The notes under the pieces were generated by a model. The model ran no database searches, was not told where the DNA came from, and saw only the letters and a list, made by a program, of their open reading frames with translations. Shown here in pieces: positions 1 through 14,203 of a stretch of 14,203 nucleotides of DNA (positions are counted from its first letter, which is position 1; every line of letters begins with the position of its first letter). Location: IMG/VR virus record IMGVR_UViG_2695420646_000007; one strand, given 5' to 3'. This DNA is from a virus. Taxonomy: Duplodnaviria; Heunggongvirae; Uroviricota; Caudoviricetes. The translations under genes and the position numbers were made by a program.

Positions 1-705
1 CGATGCGCGAATGTCGCGGCGAAATATCTGGGAACAGAGCGGCAATAAGTCGTCATCCCATGTTTTATCCAGGGCGATCAGCAGAGTGTTAATCTCCTGC
101 ATGGTTTCATCGTTAACCGGAGTGATGTCGCGTTCCGGCTGACGTTCTGCAGTGTATGCGGTATTTTCGACAATGCGCTCGGCTTCATCCTTGTCATAGA
201 TACCAGCAAATCCGAAGGCGAGACGGGCACACTGAATCATGGCTTTATGCCGTAACATCCGTTTGGGATGCGACTGCCACGGCCCCGTGATTTCTCTGCC
301 TTCGCGAGTTTTGAATGGTTCGCGGCGGCATTCATCCATCCATTCGGTAACGCAGATCGGATGATTACGGTCCTTGCGGTAAATCCGGCATGTACAGGAT
401 TCATTGTCCTGCTCAAAGTCCATGCCATCAAAATGCTGGTTTTCATTGATGATGCGGGACCAGCCATCAACGCCCACCACCGGAACGATGCCGTTCTGCT
501 TATCAGGGAAGGCGTAAATTTCTTTCGTCCACGGATTAAGGCCGTACTGGTTGGCGACGATCAACAATGCGATGAACTGCGCATCGCTGGCATCGCCTTT
601 AAATGCCGTCTGGCGAAGAGTGGTGATCAGTTCCTGTGGGTCGACAGAATCCATGCCGACACGTTCAGCCAGCTTCCCAGCCAGCGTTGCGAGTGCTGTA
701 CTCAT
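1..705 (-). CDS. bet: Bet (Red-beta) single-strand annealing recombinase; partial, C-terminal end lies beyond the window start
   Basis: Reverse-strand translation from ATG at 705..703 gives MSTALATLAGKLAERVGMDSVDPQELITTLRQTAFKGDASDAQF...IYDKDEAERIVENTAYTAERQPERDITPVNDETMQEINTLLIALDKTWDDDLLPLCSQIFRRDIRAS, which I recognise from memory as essentially lambda Bet. About 235 of about 261 codons are in the window. Not in the ORF track because it runs off the edge. Confidence 0.9.
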   Translation of the reverse strand, partial: MSTALATLAGKLAERVGMDSVDPQELITTLRQTAFKGDASDAQFIALLIVANQYGLNPWTKEIYAFPDKQNGIVPVVGVDGWSRIINENQHFDGMDFEQDNESCTCRIYRKDRNHPICVTEWMDECRREPFKTREGREITGPWQSHPKRMLRHKAMIQCARLAFGFAGIYDKDEAERIVENTAYTAERQPERDITPVNDETMQEINTLLIALDKTWDDDLLPLCSQIFRRDIRAS

Positions 706-710
706 CCGTT

Positions 711-1007
711 TTATACCTCTGAATCAATATCAACCTGGTGGTGAGCAATGGTTTCAACCATGTACCGGATGTGTTCTGCCATGCGCTCCTGAAACTCAAC
801 ATCGTCATCAAACGCACGGATAATGGCTTTTTTGCTGGCCCCGTGGCGTTGCAAATGATCGATGCATAGCGATTCAAACAGGTGCTGGGGCAGGCCTTTT
901 TCCATGTCGTCTGCCAGTTCTGCCTCTTTCTCTTCACGGGCGATCTGCTGGTAGTGACGCGCCCAGCTCTGAGCCTCAAGACGATCCTGAATGTAATAAG
1001 CGTTCAT
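711..1007 (-). CDS. gam: Gam, RecBCD inhibitor; 98 aa, equivalent to the short GamS form
   Basis: ORF track 98 aa [98 protein letters not shown], near-identical to lambda Gam as I recall it. Stop lies 5 bp upstream of the bet start. An in-frame stop at 1062..1064 upstream of the ATG rules out a longer form. Confidence 0.88.
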
Positions 1008-1083
1008 GGCTGAACTCCTGAAAATGGCTGTGAAAATATCGCCCGCGAAATGCCAGGCTGATTAGGAAAACAGGAAAGGGGGG

Positions 1084-1494
1084 TTAGTGATTCAGGCCGT
1101 TACCGCGTCCGTCGAGAAAAACTTCTACGAGCAAATCACGGGTATAAGTGCGCTCGATGCCGCGATGCAGATAAAGCCGTCCGCGTAAATTAGCTGATGC
1201 AGTCCAGGTACCATCTTTGTGTTTGACCAGCATTCCTGGCATGACCGCGCCGCGATTAACGGTCTGTGTTCCGTAATGTTGATGAACCATAAAAACTCCT
1301 GCCCGTAAGCTGGGCTGCTGAACATATAGAGACTTCTGCGCGTATTCAGGCGGTGGATGGCCGCCGGTTGTCATAACTAAGCCGCCTCGTTGAAGCGACT
1401 GAGGTATGAAATGTTGAGTTAATTTCAGCTGGTCACACCGACGTTCACGCGTCCGTTTCACCCCTCGCACTCCCCGAAGCCTGCTGAAATTCAA
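1084..1494 (-). CDS. Early-left operon protein, possibly an N-like antiterminator; start uncertain (TTG at 1494 or GTG at 1461)
   Basis: Only sizeable ORF between gam and the predicted pL, on the correct strand. N-terminal region is arginine-rich (VKRTRERRCDQLKL), reminiscent of the arginine-rich motif of N proteins. The track start is a TTG; a GTG at 1461..1459 preceded by GGGAG would give MKRTRERR... No family match I can assert. Confidence 0.4.
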   Translation of the reverse strand: MNFSRLRGVRGVKRTRERRCDQLKLTQHFIPQSLQRGGLVMTTGGHPPPEYAQKSLYVQQPSLRAGVFMVHQHYGTQTVNRGAVMPGMLVKHKDGTWTASANLRGRLYLHRGIERTYTRDLLVEVFLDGRGNGLNH

Positions 1495-1567
1495 ACTGCG
1501 GATCTAAGCGGTCATCGCAACGGTGAATCAGGTGGTTGCCGTATCGTTGTGTTGTTGCGATATGGTG

Positions 1568-1596
1568 ATAATAGCTATTGCTATTGGTGATATCAA
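1568..1596 (-). promoter_or_regulatory. Candidate pL early-left promoter (TTGATA, 17 bp spacer, TATTAT on the minus strand)
   Basis: Minus-strand read: TTGATA (plus 1596..1591), 17-nt spacer TCACCAATAGCAATAGC, TATTAT (plus 1573..1568). The spacer contains the repeated operator-like motif. Position and orientation match lambda pL relative to N and the rex slot. Confidence 0.45.
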
Positions 1597-1646
1597 TACT
1601 TATTGCTATTGACTGATGTGTTTTGATATTAAATGTTTGATAGCAA
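1573..1646. promoter_or_regulatory. Candidate OL operator cluster: repeated TTGCTATTG motif
   Basis: TTGCTATTG at 1578..1586 (within a tandem GCTATT GCTATT G) and at 1603..1611; inverted near-copy TGATAGCAA at 1638..1646. The same 9-mer recurs in the cI-cro intergenic region. Confidence 0.45.
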
Positions 1647-1735
1647 AAAGAATTAATTTTGTGACTTGCATCGCATAGCGATAACTGAAGCAGGGATGTG
1701 GTGGTTTTTTGAGCGGTGTGTGATGAGGGGAGGGG

Positions 1736-1764
1736 ACAAAAGAAAACCCGGCACGGTGGCCGGG
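1736..1764 (-). terminator. Intrinsic terminator ending the cI-linked cargo operon
   Basis: GC-rich hairpin CCCGGC-ACGGTG-GCCGGG (1747..1764); on the minus strand it is followed by TTTTCTTTT (complement of 1736..1746). Lies 27 nt past the stop of the 1791..2597 gene. Confidence 0.6.
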
Positions 1765-1790
1765 TTATTAATTAAATTAGTCAGTTTTTT

Positions 1791-2597
1791 CTACTGTAAC
1801 ATAGAGGCAGCATTCAGCATCTTTTCGTAATATGAACGCATGTCTTCTTTGCTATATGCGTTGATAAGATTATCAGCGTGTTTTTCCAGTAGATTTAGCT
1901 GCTGTTTTGCTGACTTTTCTTGTGCTGTCGTTTCAGCGGCAAAAATTACAAATGAATCAATATTTGAATTGTATAATTCGTAGGCTTTAGTAATTGTTAA
2001 AACACTTATCGCAGCTTCACCCATTTGTTTTTTTATATTTTCAGAACGAAAATCTAATGTTTCTGTAAGATGGTATTTGCCATTTTTTAACAAAAAATCT
2101 GCAACTAACCCTTCTTCATTACTAATTGGATAATTAGCTACGATTTTATGTTGGGAAAGATCTTCAAAATACTTACTGAAAATTCCATGTTGTATAAAGG
2201 TGGATTTTAATTCAGAAAAAACCTTTTTTTTCAACTGTTTATGTGGCTGTTTTTGTGGGTTTACTAACCGATTCATTAGATCAGTAACTTTAGCTTCGTA
2301 ATCTTCGTTGGCTTGAAGAGTGAACATGCCAAATGACGATAACGATAATGCTCCCTTAAAAAGACAAGGAAGAAGTTCAGCATTGTTGATTTTTTGTGAC
2401 AAATCAAAAAGCGAGGTCGAAAGATCCTCTAAGTAATCTAAGGTAAGATCTTTGTCAATCGCTTTAAGTTTTGAAACTGAATTGAGCATACGTACGTCTA
2501 TGTCAGAGTCATGGTAAACGATCAAACCAACGTTAATCGTTTCACCTTTCTCTAAGTTCGGTGTAACTCTGATTAAGCTGTATTTGAAAGTTTTCAA
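1791..2597 (-). CDS. Hypothetical 268-aa protein, partner of the HipA-like kinase; N-terminus resembles what I recall of the DUF3037 family
   Basis: ORF track 268 aa. The TTG start overlaps the upstream gene's TGA stop (TTGA), with GGAG 10 nt upstream, indicating translational coupling. AT-rich. N-terminus KYSLIRVTPNLEKGETINVGLIVY. The next in-frame ATG is 36 codons in, so the TTG start is preferred. Confidence 0.65.
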   Translation of the reverse strand: MKTFKYSLIRVTPNLEKGETINVGLIVYHDSDIDVRMLNSVSKLKAIDKDLTLDYLEDLSTSLFDLSQKINNAELLPCLFKGALSLSSFGMFTLQANEDYEAKVTDLMNRLVNPQKQPHKQLKKKVFSELKSTFIQHGIFSKYFEDLSQHKIVANYPISNEEGLVADFLLKNGKYHLTETLDFRSENIKKQMGEAAISVLTITKAYELYNSNIDSFVIFAAETTAQEKSAKQQLNLLEKHADNLINAYSKEDMRSYYEKMLNAASMLQ

Positions 2598-3442
2598 GAT
2601 GTTATCTCCAGTCTTATGGCATTTAGCCTATCGATTCGCTCCTCGCTGTCCCACCACTTCAAAAAATACTCCTTATGCATTGGTGGCATCCATGCTTCAG
2701 GCATAGAGTTAAGTATATCAGATATAGCCTCAACTCCAATTTTTTCAATTTTGTCAAGGACAGATAATGCGCACTTTCTCAGATCATCAGTGTCGCCAAT
2801 GAATTGTTTAGCAATCGTCCAGTTTGTTGTTGTACTGGAGTCTGTTGGTAGTATATGAGGGGTATTTCGTGGCCAGCCTATAACAAAAGAGCTTAGACTA
2901 AAATCGAATGTTTTAACTATAACATTGCCTCGGGTGTTTTCCATGTATAAGTAGTTGTTGAGGTGTCTGTCAATGTTATATACAAACTGATCAAATGCAT
3001 AAATTGCCCAGAGTTGCTTCTTTAAGGATTCAGAAGCATTTGAGAGCAAATTTATCCATTGAGGACTATTGAGACCAGATTTCCAGGCTGAAAACTCTAT
3101 GCGAGAGCCAAAAACATACTCCCCATTAGCAATACACTTGAGAATTTTGCACACAGGTGTAGCGATGCCGCATTTTTCAGCTAAATTTGTGCAAAACCAT
3201 TCCGCTGCCGGTACTTGAGTTGGGTTTTGTACAGGAAAAGGTGGGGTGGAGCGCATGCTTTTAACTGCATATTCCATTTCATCAGTGGCAATAGCGAAAC
3301 CAGAAAGGTGTGCTGTGCCTAAGCTTGAAGGTGTATATTCATGAAATTCTAATTCAAACAAACTTCCTTGCTCTGGTTTCACTTCATCAGTGTTTGACTC
3401 TTGTTCTTTCGTCATCAACTTTTTTCCCCAAATCGAAGACAT
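2594..3442 (-). CDS. Atypical HipA-family (PI3/4-kinase-like fold) Ser/Thr kinase-like protein, 282 aa
   Basis: ORF track 282 aa; ATG at 3442 preceded by AAGAGG. Contains FVYNIDRHLNNYLYM followed 13 residues later by VKTFDFSLS, matching the HipA-type catalytic loop (N-x-D-x-H-x-x-N) and Mg-binding [FY]-D-[FL]-x-S pattern as I recall them. No recognisable HipA N-terminal domain or glycine-rich Q-x-K loop. AT-rich, immediately downstream of cI on the same strand. Confidence 0.7.
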   Translation of the reverse strand: MSSIWGKKLMTKEQESNTDEVKPEQGSLFELEFHEYTPSSLGTAHLSGFAIATDEMEYAVKSMRSTPPFPVQNPTQVPAAEWFCTNLAEKCGIATPVCKILKCIANGEYVFGSRIEFSAWKSGLNSPQWINLLSNASESLKKQLWAIYAFDQFVYNIDRHLNNYLYMENTRGNVIVKTFDFSLSSFVIGWPRNTPHILPTDSSTTTNWTIAKQFIGDTDDLRKCALSVLDKIEKIGVEAISDILNSMPEAWMPPMHKEYFLKWWDSEERIDRLNAIRLEITS

Positions 3443-3488
3443 GCGGACCTCTTAAATTTGAACAACATCATAATGATTAGCTAATCCG

Positions 3489-4181
3489 CTACCCATGCTT
3501 CCTATACGTCTGCGGCATGCTCCCAATAACCTTACCGAAGATGAACACCCGGTTCATCTCGTCTTTCTCGATCGGGTCCCACGGTGAGTAGCTCTTGTTA
3601 TCAGAGATAACCAGCAGCTTATCCTTCATCATTTGCAGACGCTTTACATGGGCTGTGTCGTCGTACAGAAACGCATAGATACCATCACCGTCGAAAGATT
3701 TAACCGTGATATCAACGAACAGCAGATCACCTGGTTCGATCGTTCCTGACATGCTGTCACCACGCACGTTAATGATGCGGATATTTTCCGCCTTCCTGCC
3801 ATCGAACATGTGACGAGCATCGTCAAACGAGTACTCAACCGAGCGTAGAACTTCTACAAACTCACGGTTGATTACACCCGGCCCGGCACTGACTTCTATA
3901 TCAAGAACGTCAATTTTGAAGTATTTGGAATGGCTGACAGCAGGCTTCCCTGATTGTTGACCGTCATTTCTCATCGGGCCTATGCCTGATGAGAGCCATT
4001 CTGTTCGAACACCCAATGCATTAGCTATTTCAACAATTTTTGTTGAGCCGCGCGCGTTGCCGCTTGTCAGTCTCCAGATTGTGGGTTGAGCTACGCCAGA
4101 CGCCTTTGCAAGAGCGCCTTGAGACATTCCAGATTGTTCCATCGCTAGGTTTAAGCGATCAGCAAGAGTTTCTTTTTTCAT
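3489..4181 (-). CDS. cI: CI-like prophage repressor (N-terminal HTH_XRE, C-terminal S24/LexA-like autopeptidase)
   Basis: Translation from ATG at 4181..4179: MKKETLADRLNLAMEQSGMSQGALAKASGVAQPTIWRL... (HTH), a possible Ala-Gly cleavage site in EVSAGPGV, and RGDSMSGTIEPGDLLFVD...VKRLQ (Ser/Lys dyad context). The track's 4217 start is a TTG 36 nt upstream; the ATG is preferred. Divergent from cro. Confidence 0.85.
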   Translation of the reverse strand: MKKETLADRLNLAMEQSGMSQGALAKASGVAQPTIWRLTSGNARGSTKIVEIANALGVRTEWLSSGIGPMRNDGQQSGKPAVSHSKYFKIDVLDIEVSAGPGVINREFVEVLRSVEYSFDDARHMFDGRKAENIRIINVRGDSMSGTIEPGDLLFVDITVKSFDGDGIYAFLYDDTAHVKRLQMMKDKLLVISDNKSYSPWDPIEKDEMNRVFIFGKVIGSMPQTYRKHG

Positions 4182-4188
4182 AAGTTTT

Positions 4189-4217
4189 AATTTATACGCT
4201 TGCGTATTGATGGTCAA
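4189..4217 (-). promoter_or_regulatory. Candidate pRM (maintenance promoter) giving a near-leaderless cI mRNA
   Basis: Minus-strand read: TTGACC (plus 4217..4212), 17-nt spacer, TAAATT (plus 4194..4189), ending 8 nt before the cI ATG. Overlaps the palindrome ATACGC-TT-GCGTAT (4194..4207). Confidence 0.35.
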
Positions 4218-4225
4218 AACACGTT

Positions 4226-4283
4226 TTGCTATTGCTTGGATTAATACGCATTGCTATTATTCATTCATTGCAATACCAATAGG
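4226..4283. promoter_or_regulatory. Candidate OR operator cluster: TTGCTATTG motif copies plus palindromic ATTGCAAT
   Basis: TTGCTATTG at 4226..4234, TTGCTATTA at 4251..4259, and CATTGCAATACCAATAGG at 4266..4283 containing the palindrome ATTGCAAT. Same motif as in the pL region, as expected for operators bound by one repressor. Confidence 0.45.
4232..4260 (+). promoter_or_regulatory. Candidate pR early-right promoter (TTGCTT, 17 bp spacer, TATTAT)
   Basis: TTGCTT at 4232..4237, 17-bp spacer, TATTAT at 4255..4260, 31 nt upstream of the cro ATG. The -10 hexamer is embedded in an operator motif copy, mirroring the pL arrangement. Confidence 0.45.
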
Positions 4284-4291
4284 AATTGATA

Positions 4292-4519
4292 ATGACAAAT
4301 CAAACCATTCAACTCGCAATCAGTATTACAGGTAGTCAAAAACGACTGGCAGATCTATGCGGTGTAGCCCAACCCACTGTTTGGCGTTGGCTACACGGTG
4401 GCGGAATTGATGCCCGCTATGTAATGAAAATTGTCTCAGCCACTGGTGGAAAGATTAAACCAGCAGATATTCGTCCCGACCTCGCACCATTGTTTAACGC
4501 GAGTAATTCTGCCGCCTAA
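4292..4519 (+). CDS. cro: Cro-like HTH repressor
   Basis: ATG at 4292 with AGGAA 7 nt upstream; MTNQTIQLAISITGSQKRLADLCGVAQPTVWRWLHGG... has a Cro/CI-type helix-turn-helix. Divergent from cI across a 110-bp operator region. The track's 4286 start is a TTG. Confidence 0.8.
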   Translation: MTNQTIQLAISITGSQKRLADLCGVAQPTVWRWLHGGGIDARYVMKIVSATGGKIKPADIRPDLAPLFNASNSAA

Positions 4520-4527
4520 ACTGCGGC
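4511..4527 (+). promoter_or_regulatory. BoxB-like stem-loop (candidate nutR element) overlapping the cro stop codon
   Basis: GCCGC-CTAAACT-GCGGC: 5-bp GC-rich stem with a 7-nt A-rich loop and no following U-tract, so it is not a terminator. Sits immediately downstream of cro, where lambdoid nutR lies. I could not identify a boxA. Confidence 0.3.
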
Positions 4528-4543
4528 GTTAACTGATAAGGCA

Positions 4544-5089
4544 ATGACTATGCAACCACTTACATACCAACAGACTAGCGGATTTATCCCGACTGCGGTG
4601 ATAAATCGTTCTCAAATAAAACAGGTGCCAGGCCACGAAAAAATCCGTGATGCCATCCGCGCCTGGTCGGCTGTAGATAATCAGGATGTCGTTGCCGCAC
4701 TCATTGTGAATGAGTATCGAGCACAGGGCGGCGGCACTATCGATTTTTCTGATGATGTCAGTCGTGCACGCCAGAAGCTGTTCCGCTTTCTCGATAACAA
4801 ATTCGATTCTGAAAAATACCGAAATAACGTGCGTGAACTGACTCCAGCAATTCTGGCAGTACTACCGCTGAAATATCGCGGCCACCTGGTTGAGCAGGAT
4901 AGCTTCATGGCTCGGCTGGCTGAAATGGAAAAGGAACTCAGTGAGGCAAAACAGGCTGTCATTCTCAACGCACCACGCCACCAGAAACTGAAGGAGATGA
5001 GTGAAGGCATTGTGTCGATGTTTCGTGTGGACCCGGATTTGGCTGGTCCACTGATGGCGATGGTCACCACCATGCTGGGGGCAATATGA
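4544..5089 (+). CDS. YdaT-like (DUF1019) protein in the cII position
   Basis: 181 aa; ATG preceded by TAAGG. Motifs NEYRAQGGG and LTPAILAVLPLKYRGHL resemble what I recall of Rac-prophage YdaT family proteins, which follow cro-like genes. The family call is from memory and unverified. Confidence 0.55.
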   Translation: MTMQPLTYQQTSGFIPTAVINRSQIKQVPGHEKIRDAIRAWSAVDNQDVVAALIVNEYRAQGGGTIDFSDDVSRARQKLFRFLDNKFDSEKYRNNVRELTPAILAVLPLKYRGHLVEQDSFMARLAEMEKELSEAKQAVILNAPRHQKLKEMSEGIVSMFRVDPDLAGPLMAMVTTMLGAI

Positions 5090-5175
5090 CAGGTTCAGAA
5101 ATGGCGAAAGCCGGTCTGCGCGAACAGAACCGACTTTCAGGTGCAAATCGTAACACACTCATTGCGGGAGGAATT

Positions 5176-6105
5176 ATGGCAAACACTGCTGAGATATTCA
5201 ATTTTCCAGTGCCGGATGTGGCACAAAAGGAGCCGCGCGTGGCAGATCTCGATGATGGTTATACGCGCATTGCAAATGAGTTGCTGGAAGCTGTGATGCT
5301 GGCCGGATTAACACAGCACCAGCTTCTGGTCTTCCTGGCTGTCATGCGCAAAACATATGGCTTTAATAAAAAACTGGATTGGGTGAGCAACGAGCAACTT
5401 TCCGAATTGACCGGGATATTGCCGCACAAGTGTTCTGCTGCAAAAAGCGTTCTGGTAAAGCGTGGGATTCTTATTCAGAGCGGGCGGAATATCGGCATTA
5501 ATAATGTGGTCAGTGAATGGTCAACATTACCCGAATCAGGTAAGAAAAATAAAGTTTACCTGAAAGAGGTAAATTTACCTGAATCAGGTAAGAAAAGTTT
5601 ACCCAAATCAGGTAAAGGCGTTTACCCGAATCAGGTAAACACAAAAGACAAACTAACAAAAGACAATATAAAACCTTTTTCGTCCGAGAATTCTGGCGAA
5701 TCCTCTGACCAACCAGAAAACGATCTTCCTGTGGAGAAACCAGATGCTGCAATTCAGAGCGGCAGCAGGTGGGGGACAGCAGAAGACCTGACCGCCGCAG
5801 AGTGGATGTTTGACATGGTGAAGACCATCGCGCCATCAGCCAGAAAACCGAATTTTGCAGGGTGGGCTAACGATATCCGCCTGATGCGTGAACGTGACGG
5901 ACGTAACCACCGCGACATGTGCATGCTGTTCCGCTGGGCATGCCAGGACAACTTTTGGTCTGGTAACGTGCTGAGCCCGGCCAAACTTCGCGACAAGTGG
6001 ACCCAACTCGAAATCAACCGTAACAAACAACAGGCTGGCGTGACAGCCGGAAAACCAAAACTCGACCTGACAAACACAGACTGGATTTACGGGGTGGATC
6101 TATGA
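5176..6105 (+). CDS. O: Replication initiator O; C-terminal half lambda-type, N-terminal origin-binding half divergent
   Basis: ATG at 5176 with GGGAGG 5 nt upstream gives MANTAEIFNFPVPDVAQKEPRVADLDDGY... The C-terminal YSSENSGESSDQPENDL...NTDWIYGVDL is near-identical to lambda O as I recall it. The ORF track offers an alternative upstream ATG at 5086 overlapping the previous stop. Iterons lie inside the gene. Confidence 0.85.
   Translation: MANTAEIFNFPVPDVAQKEPRVADLDDGYTRIANELLEAVMLAGLTQHQLLVFLAVMRKTYGFNKKLDWVSNEQLSELTGILPHKCSAAKSVLVKRGILIQSGRNIGINNVVSEWSTLPESGKKNKVYLKEVNLPESGKKSLPKSGKGVYPNQVNTKDKLTKDNIKPFSSENSGESSDQPENDLPVEKPDAAIQSGSRWGTAEDLTAAEWMFDMVKTIAPSARKPNFAGWANDIRLMRERDGRNHRDMCMLFRWACQDNFWSGNVLSPAKLRDKWTQLEINRNKQQAGVTAGKPKLDLTNTDWIYGVDL
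5527..5639. repeat. Replication origin iterons: five copies of a roughly 19-bp element TTTACC(C/T)GAATCAGGTAAA, followed by an AT-rich tract
   Basis: Copies at 5527..5544, 5555..5573 (degenerate), 5574..5592, 5598..5616 and 5621..5639; each is internally palindromic (TTTACC...GGTAAA). AT-rich stretch 5640..5685 follows. Same architecture as ori-lambda inside O, but a different iteron sequence. Confidence 0.75.
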
Positions 6106-14031: not shown

Positions 14032-14127
14032 ATGAAATCCATGGATAAGTTAACAACGGGCATTGCCTACGGCACCTCCGCAGGCAGTGCTGGCTACTGG
14101 TTTTTACAGCTGCTCGATAAAGTGTAA
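14032..14127 (+). pseudogene. Truncated S21-type pinholin start (31 codons) with dual-start MKSM motif
   Basis: GGAGGTGAGG then ATG at 14032; [31 protein letters not shown] then TAA. The first 27 or so residues match the phage 21 / DLP12 EssD holin N-terminus from memory; that family is about 71 aa. No alternative frame continues the homology. Confidence 0.4.
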
Positions 14128-14160
14128 GCGTCAACGGAGCACCGTATTGACGCTTATTTA
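14128..14160 (+). terminator. Hairpin with T-rich tail directly after the truncated holin frame
   Basis: GCGTCAA-(12 nt loop)-TTGACGC (14128..14153) followed by TTATTTATTGG. Stem is 7 bp; the U-tract is interrupted, so this is a weak terminator call. Confidence 0.3.
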
Positions 14161-14203
14161 TTGGTGAGTACTACGTTCCATGGCAGGAGTTCATCAACTC
14201 GGT

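Follow-up and report, generated by a model that had tools for sequence, protein, structure and literature searches.

A divergent HipA_2-DUF3037 gene pair of the HipAD kind beside the repressor gene of a lambdoid prophage

What is the role of two AT-rich genes that follow the repressor gene of a lambdoid prophage, in the place where phage lambda carries rexA and rexB? The question is raised by the virus record IMGVR_UViG_2695420646_000007, a stretch of 14,203 nucleotides (nt; hereafter the window) that holds the immunity region of such a prophage. Behind a cI-like repressor gene, and on the same (minus) strand, lie gene A (2594..3442), which codes for a HipA_2-family kinase of the Ser/Thr type of 282 amino acids (aa), and gene B (1791..2597), which codes for a two-domain DUF3037 protein of 268 aa; both open reading frames (ORFs) stand where the initial annotation of this DNA had placed them. 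Judged by profile comparison, the A-B pair is a divergent variant of the HipA_2-DUF3037 defence pair variously called HipAD, DS-6 and PDC-M66, in which the C-terminal domain of the partner is peculiar to this variant. The architecture is already described, and this is not a new kind of system. By analogy with those relatives, we put at about 0.72 the probability that the pair is a lysogen-expressed kinase defence of toxin-antitoxin-like organization and of the same kind, probably acting by abortive infection.

The product of gene A passes the Pfam threshold for HipA_2 (PF20613; 28.7 bits against a cut-off of 27) and stays below the threshold for HipA_C. Pfam finds no Couple_hipA domain, i.e., no N-terminal domain of HipA, in it, and NCBIfam contains no HipA equivalog for it; among the phage protein families, it belongs to PHROG 3162 (E = 1.7e-66). 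The AlphaFold2 model, built on 28 homologues, has a predicted local distance difference test score (pLDDT) of 85 and a predicted template modelling score (pTM) of 0.83, with residues 1-28 disordered. The best Foldseek matches of this model among the PDB structures are to the HipA-like kinase CtkA (E = 2e-8), then to HipA, HipT and type II phosphatidylinositol 4-kinases; profile searches of the PDB sequences gave nothing significant for A, for B or for the C-terminal domain of B. The proposal of an atypical HipA-like kinase devoid of the HipA N-terminal domain is borne out by the HipA_2 match and the fold matches.

In the alignment of the 28 homologues, with identity down to 32%, the invariant residues of A are K61, E81, D151, N156, D158-R159-H160, N163, D180 and S182. 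Two motifs singled out in the initial annotation account for most of them. The catalytic loop YNIDRHLNNY (2951..2980, minus strand) contains N156, D158, R159, H160 and N163, and the DFG-like metal-binding motif FDFSLS (2891..2908, minus strand) contains D180 and S182. Upstream of both, the invariant K61 (in EYAVK; codon at 3260..3262, minus strand) is the candidate ATP-binding lysine, and E81 its likely partner. Taken together, the invariant set is the pattern expected for an active kinase of HipA-like fold. RefSeq begins the protein at Met10 (273 aa) and labels it 'hypothetical protein'; the upstream ATG at 3442 has a better Shine-Dalgarno sequence, AAGAGG, with a 5-nt spacer.

The product of gene B matches Pfam DUF3037 (38.5 bits) and PHROG 5137 (E = 5e-73), in agreement with the suggestion that the partner is a DUF3037 protein and not a HipB-like helix-turn-helix (HTH) antitoxin. 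It also scores on the PADLOC model of PDC-M66B (E = 2.6e-8, 31.7 bits, profile positions 1-204 of 281, with B covered only to residue 190); all PADLOC figures given here are scores on its models and not calls made by its thresholds. The AlphaFold2 model of B (pLDDT 87) has two domains, residues 1-115 (2253..2597, minus strand) and 125-268 (1794..2225, minus strand). The C-terminal domain dominates the fold matches and is predicted to have a restriction-endonuclease-like (PD-(D/E)xK-like) α/β core; fold searches gave no clear match of the N-terminal, DUF3037 domain to a solved structure. A profile of the C-terminal domain retrieved 336 proteins among 1.84 billion representatives, nearly all of them with the match at residues ~125-270 of proteins of ~270 aa, and the eight carriers checked against Pfam were mostly DUF3037 proteins. 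When 16 members of the domain were compared with Pfam at E up to 10, only noise was found, and no DUF1829.

A described counterpart of this pair exists. Candidate PDC-M66 of PADLOC combines a HipA-like protein with a DUF3037 protein (PMC12548924), the PDC candidates being set out in bioRxiv 10.1101/2024.01.29.577857 (Payne et al.). DS-6, validated by DefensePredictor, consists of a HipA-related kinase and a DUF3037/DUF1829 protein (DeWeirdt et al. 2026, PMC13092281). In E. coli it lowers the efficiency of plating (EOP) of phage Bas1, with a -log EOP of 3.9, and the D139A mutation abolishes this defence (PMC13092281). According to the same paper, Brenes & Laub 2025 discovered this system independently and gave it the name HipAD; an eLife 2020 paper cited beside theirs mentions neither HipA nor DUF3037. 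The accessions of the system are WP_000389051.1 and WP_000210934.1. The DS-6A sequence of the supplement and the 'HipA toxin' that phage PhiR5_1 (PV340545.1) encodes are 100% identical. A further relative is found in the Retron-Sda1 operon, where deletion of the kinase abolishes defence and deletion of the DUF3037 gene is toxic (PMC12548924).

Profile-profile alignment by hhalign connects both genes of our pair to this system. The A family aligns with DS-6A at 96.8% probability (E = 2e-10, 172 columns), and D158 of A falls on D139 of DS-6A. The B family aligns with the HipD family at 96.1% probability (E = 2.9e-9, 135 columns, residues 2-140 against 3-151), which covers the DUF3037 domain and marks it as homologous to that of HipD/DS-6B. 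The opinion that the pair was not a described system has to be divided accordingly: the kind is known under all three names and is present in PV340545.1, which does not hold for this divergent allele. The accompanying idea, that the kinase is a toxin or an abortive-infection effector and the second protein its regulator, agrees with experiments on the relatives, in which D139A abolishes defence (PMC13092281) and deletion of DUF3037 is toxic (PMC12548924).

The position of the pair is best seen by comparison with PhiR5_1. In blastn, the window is 96% identical to this phage over 1..1772, 91% over 3490..4045 and 95% over 4549..7066, with no similarity across 1773..3489. The breakpoints, at 1772/1773 and 3489/3490, are flush with the terminator and with the cI stop codon. 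In PhiR5_1 the gene order is cI, 'HipA toxin', 'HipD antitoxin', then Kil, Gam, Bet and Exo. Since homology breaks at the cI stop codon and at the terminator, the cassette in 1773..3489 and HipA/HipD replace each other. The same limits are obtained with two more phages: against PhiR5_1, PhiR47_2 and PhiR68_2 the breakpoints fall at 1764-1773 and 3489-3493, and define an exchangeable (unstranded) cassette, 1773..3489. PhiR68_2 has the cI, cro and left flank of the window (97-98%), but an unnamed pair of genes for 341 aa and 149 aa in the slot, and PhiR47_2 has GevT/GevA there. Four two-gene cargos thus occur on near-identical flanks: the A-B pair, HipA/HipD, GevT/GevA and the unnamed pair. The slot between cI and OL/pL is, as was claimed for it, equivalent to that of rexAB. 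The terminator had been counted with the acquired genes; it is shared phage backbone, because it lies inside the 1..1772 block common to all three phages. About 970 complete E. coli genomes carry this terminator flank.

The repressor gene itself is a mosaic. Its C-terminal, S24 part (3490-4045) is 90-91% identical to that of PhiR5_1 and PhiR47_2, whereas the N-terminal DNA-binding part, the operators and cro (4046-4548) are unrelated to theirs, which points to a swap of immunity specificity within the gene.

Pattern scans of GTDB genomes and IMG/VR collected 82 related loci. In 81 of these, a homologue of B comes immediately after a homologue of A, with no change of strand. These 81 loci, which span several orders of Proteobacteria, have both genes intact, and 62 of them keep a 4-bp A/B overlap. 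The AT-richness remarked on in the initial annotation (G+C content 0.32-0.39 along the pair against ~0.50 in its flanks, with overall values of ~37% and ~49%) is also general, as nearly all 81 loci have a G+C deficit relative to their surroundings. The gene just upstream of the pair, on its strand, is cI-like in 57 of the 61 viral loci and in 7 of the 20 genomic ones. In the 64 cI-adjacent loci, the repressors form 16 clusters at 50% identity; S24-type proteins and short HTH-only forms both occur, usually with a divergent cro-like gene beside them. Genomes of beta-, alpha- and some gamma-proteobacteria contain the pair on its own, beside unrelated genes (LysR, UDG, IclR, NYN, FBPase, NERD-UvrD, SRAP). 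Since it recurs behind varied cI-like genes and elsewhere stands alone, the A-B pair is an autonomous module, repeatedly carried behind cI by lambdoid phages of Enterobacterales and their relatives.

Selection on the two genes is strongly purifying and similar in rate, with pN (nonsynonymous) of 0.07-0.20 and pS (synonymous) of 0.69-0.91, the latter saturated. Because of this selection and of the A-then-B order in 81 of 82 loci, the pair must be more than two chance ORFs. One protein of 541 aa (P0337) joins HipA_2, DUF3037 and the subfamily C-terminal domain in a single polypeptide, and is either a natural fusion of kinase and partner or an assembly frameshift. Another protein, of 326 aa (P0022), spans 77% of A and 26% of B, and its call is probably frameshifted. 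The pair is rare in E. coli, where 24 of 5426 complete genomes carry it. A tblastn search of gene A against 50,697 phage records gave no match, and a search of phage DNA recovered just the ~70-nt terminator flank.

At the A/B junction (2594..2609, minus strand), which reads TCTTGAAA, the TTG start of B (2597..2595) and the TGA stop of A (2596..2594) overlap by 4 bp, and GGAG lies at 2609..2606. The overlap and the GGAG are thus both present as first noted, with a spacer to the TTG of 8 nt and not 10. They suggest translational coupling of B to A, as had been supposed. The spacer between cI and A (46 nt, 3443..3488, minus strand) folds no better than its shuffles (z = -0.17), and simple scans of its minus strand found no terminator and no promoter. 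Nothing that would uncouple the pair from cI was found in these scans, and this absence of signals, together with the analogy to rexAB, makes it plausible that the pair is co-transcribed with cI. The pair is closed by an intrinsic terminator (1736..1766, minus strand) with an 8-bp G+C-rich stem, a 6-nt loop and a U-tract: the hairpin occupies 1745..1766 and is followed by UUUUCUUUUG down to ~1736 (-14.2 kcal/mol, z = -2.3). It is real and precedes pL, as stated in the initial annotation, which had its limits (1736..1764) off by 2 nt. Beyond it, the OL/pL region with operator-like repeats (1562..1610, minus strand) contains a pL-like promoter, TTGATA-17-TATTAT, at 1596..1568, and the surrounding 49-nt block (1562-1610) is repeated at OR (4210-4258).

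Two candidate signals inside the genes were considered and dismissed. A promoter-like site at 2943..2916 lies in a region that has fewer promoter-like matches than its shuffles (5 versus 7.3), and a terminator-like site at 2372..2351 has a hairpin with only three G-C pairs and no U-tract. An Rfam scan of the whole window found no RNA elements.

These observations can be assembled into a course of events. The mobile two-gene cassette 1773..3489 would have entered the immunity region by insertion. Read-through from the cI transcript (pRM) would express the pair in a lysogen, like rexAB in lambda, and B, to judge from the relatives, would bind A and neutralize it. Infection by another phage would free the kinase, which, with D158 as its catalytic base, may then phosphorylate an essential target of the host or of the phage, so that the infected cell or the phage no longer grows. 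The toxicity of A, its neutralization by B and the defence phenotype are attributed to the pair by analogy with the related systems.

Several results weigh against this scenario. At the level of single sequences, the relationship to DS-6 is faint: in BLASTP, A and DS-6A are 21% identical over 117 aa (E = 0.015), and B and DS-6B align over only ~22 residues. The C-terminal halves of B and HipD are not alignable (hhalign probability <1%, E = 0.08-0.29), and sensing or neutralization may therefore differ between the two systems. The match of A to PDC-M66A is weak (15.7 bits, E = 1.6e-3, ~40 residues), and A scores better on PDC-M03A (PDLC04340, PDLC04344; 26.5 bits). As to expression, the argument for co-transcription with cI is the absence of signals in simple scans, and the occurrence of the pair without cI in non-enterobacterial genomes implies that it can use its own promoter. 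The match of kinase A to PDC-M03A, for its part, suggests a wider set of HipA_2-like kinases that have different partners in candidate defence systems; gene B has no PDC-M03 match.

The C-terminal domain of B invites another explanation, which we hold to be unlikely: B would be the effector or a DNA sensor, and its C-terminal domain an active nuclease or DNA-binding module that is switched on when A phosphorylates it, or that senses phage DNA and then releases A. It is in this domain that the best conserved stretch of B, HK.V.NY...EG..A(D/E)FLLKNG.YHLTE..D, is located. The stretch corresponds to the β2-β3 hairpin of the predicted nuclease fold and offers an acidic residue (D or E) at 167, invariant H176, E179 and D182, and a nearly invariant K171; moreover, an AlphaFold3 model of DS-6B with DNA is reported to have an interface score (ipTM) of 0.67 (PMC13092281). 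Yet the canonical (D/E)xK triplet is absent from the domain (T and L follow E179), the Foldseek matches of B are all above E = 1e-3, and no nuclease family matches the domain in sequence. Inactive members are common in the restriction-endonuclease-like fold, and ERCC1 and FAAP24 are among the matches here. In the relatives, the toxicity of the DUF3037 deletion and the requirement for the catalytic Asp of the kinase (PMC12548924, PMC13092281) fit the kinase as the toxin. For the subfamily as a whole, the corresponding view would be that of a mechanistically distinct kinase-nuclease-fold system, in which the partner C-terminal domain recognizes or cuts phage DNA and so causes release of the kinase, or in which the kinase licenses the nuclease. 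This we likewise consider doubtful; if true, it would mean a trigger logic unlike that proposed for HipAD.

A defence role could also be denied to the pair altogether. Its toxin-antitoxin-like organization, with a toxin-type kinase and a tightly coupled partner, its location in a mobile element, and the fact that HipA-family kinases are classical persistence toxins would all suit a prophage addiction or stabilization module, or a HipBA-like persistence factor, with no part in phage exclusion. That appears quite improbable, since three independent studies report defence phenotypes for HipA_2 and DUF3037 pairs, the slot holds other named defence pairs here and rexAB in lambda, and defence cargo typically shows the kind of cassette turnover that is seen here on an identical cI backbone; besides, addiction or persistence and defence are compatible with each other. 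Hardly credible, finally, is an inert or decaying passenger that owes its annotation to long ORFs in AT-rich DNA. The RefSeq label 'hypothetical protein' and the rarity in complete E. coli genomes would be in keeping with it, but pN is far below pS in both genes, the catalytic residues are invariant, both AlphaFold2 models are confident, and the genes are intact in 81 loci. No frameshifts or stop codons were seen among the homologues apart from the odd P0022, and the passenger explanation is already contradicted by these data. A kinase defence of the HipAD kind therefore remains the reading that we prefer.

The surroundings of the pair are those of a lambdoid phage. The cI-like repressor, the upstream gene of the operon (3489..4217, minus strand), has Pfam matches to Peptidase_S24 (E = 1.5e-18) and HTH_3 (E = 1.5e-6); RefSeq starts it later than this ORF and obtains a shorter protein. 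Leftward past pL follow Kil and Gam, and to the right of cI are a YdaS-type Cro, a YdaT/cII-like protein, O, P and Ren. Between pL and kil (1084-1596) no N-like antiterminator gene is apparent; the 136-aa ORF at 1084..1494 matches Kil only in its last 77 residues, and in PhiR5_1, too, the slot is directly followed by Kil.

A second variable slot lies between ren and ybcN, at 7067-8876 (ORFs 7382-8134 and 8391-8873, plus strand). It contains a 250-aa DUF4145 protein (PHROG 1305) with an N-terminal CxxC pair, and a 160-aa protein of PHROG 27260 that has no Pfam match and shows an RNNLFH (Rx4H, HEPN-like) motif. Neither has a PADLOC match; they are possibly further defence cargo. In the sequence L001, a DUF4041 protein and other genes stand in place of this segment. 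Further downstream, after the Q antiterminator (10538-10930), non-structural cargo genes occupy 11086-13844: a Blc-like lipocalin (minus strand), a DUF523/DUF1722 protein (YbgA-like, 2-thiouracil desulfurase) and an AraC-type regulator in very AT-rich DNA (31% G+C), all assigned to PHROG families without a known function. In the complete E. coli genomes, no single place covers 80% or more of 7000-14203.

How does the pair compare with the systems that it resembles? With HipBA of E. coli K-12 and with HipBST it shares the kinase core fold, the D-x-H-x-x-N loop with a metal-binding Asp downstream, and a toxin-like logic. HipA phosphorylates GltX, and HipT phosphorylates TrpS. The A-B pair differs from both systems in that it has no HipA N-terminal domain, no HipS-like piece and no HipB HTH antitoxin, and in that the kinase gene comes first. 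We therefore rejected a canonical HipBA type II toxin-antitoxin: A, at 282 aa, is without the N-terminal domain, B has no HTH, and the gene order is reversed. Lambda RexAB resembles the pair in its position between cI and OL/pL, in sharing the strand of cI, in its closing terminator, and in the presumed expression in the lysogen and exclusion role. It is otherwise a different thing, a sensor and a membrane ion channel in place of a kinase and a DUF3037 protein, with no relation in sequence or fold; homology to Rex was discarded, as there is no Rex family among the Pfam, PHROG, NCBIfam and PADLOC matches of A and B. The HipA/DUF3037 pair of Retron-Sda1 has the same two-gene architecture, and differs in its context, since there is no retron or reverse transcriptase near the A-B pair.

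The closest likeness is to DS-6/HipAD. In both, a short HipA_2-type kinase gene is followed with a 4-bp overlap by a DUF3037 gene, both pairs have more A+T than the DNA around them, and the slot between the cI stop codon and the terminator and OL/pL is identical, on the same lambdoid backbone. The differences lie in the proteins and in their frequency. Gene A has an extra disordered N-terminal tail of ~28 aa compared with DS-6A; DS-6B was called DUF1829-like by HHpred at 78% (PMC13092281), whereas the C-terminal domain of B has no Pfam match; on the models of PDC-M66, A and B reach 15.7 and 31.7 bits where DS-6A and DS-6B reach 53 and 57; and HipAD is found in 284 of 5426 complete E. coli genomes, which makes the A-B pair ~12 times rarer. 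With a PDC-M66A match this weak and with a 'hypothetical' label in RefSeq, automated annotation could overlook the kinase, and an automated PADLOC run might fail to call the pair. A kinase toxin-antitoxin defence carried by a prophage next to cI is, as a basic idea, in the literature already, and what the window adds to the HipA_2 and DUF3037 systems is a very divergent branch. The two alleles have a common kinase and DUF3037 core and different partner C-terminal domains, and their comparison could show which part of such a system senses infection.

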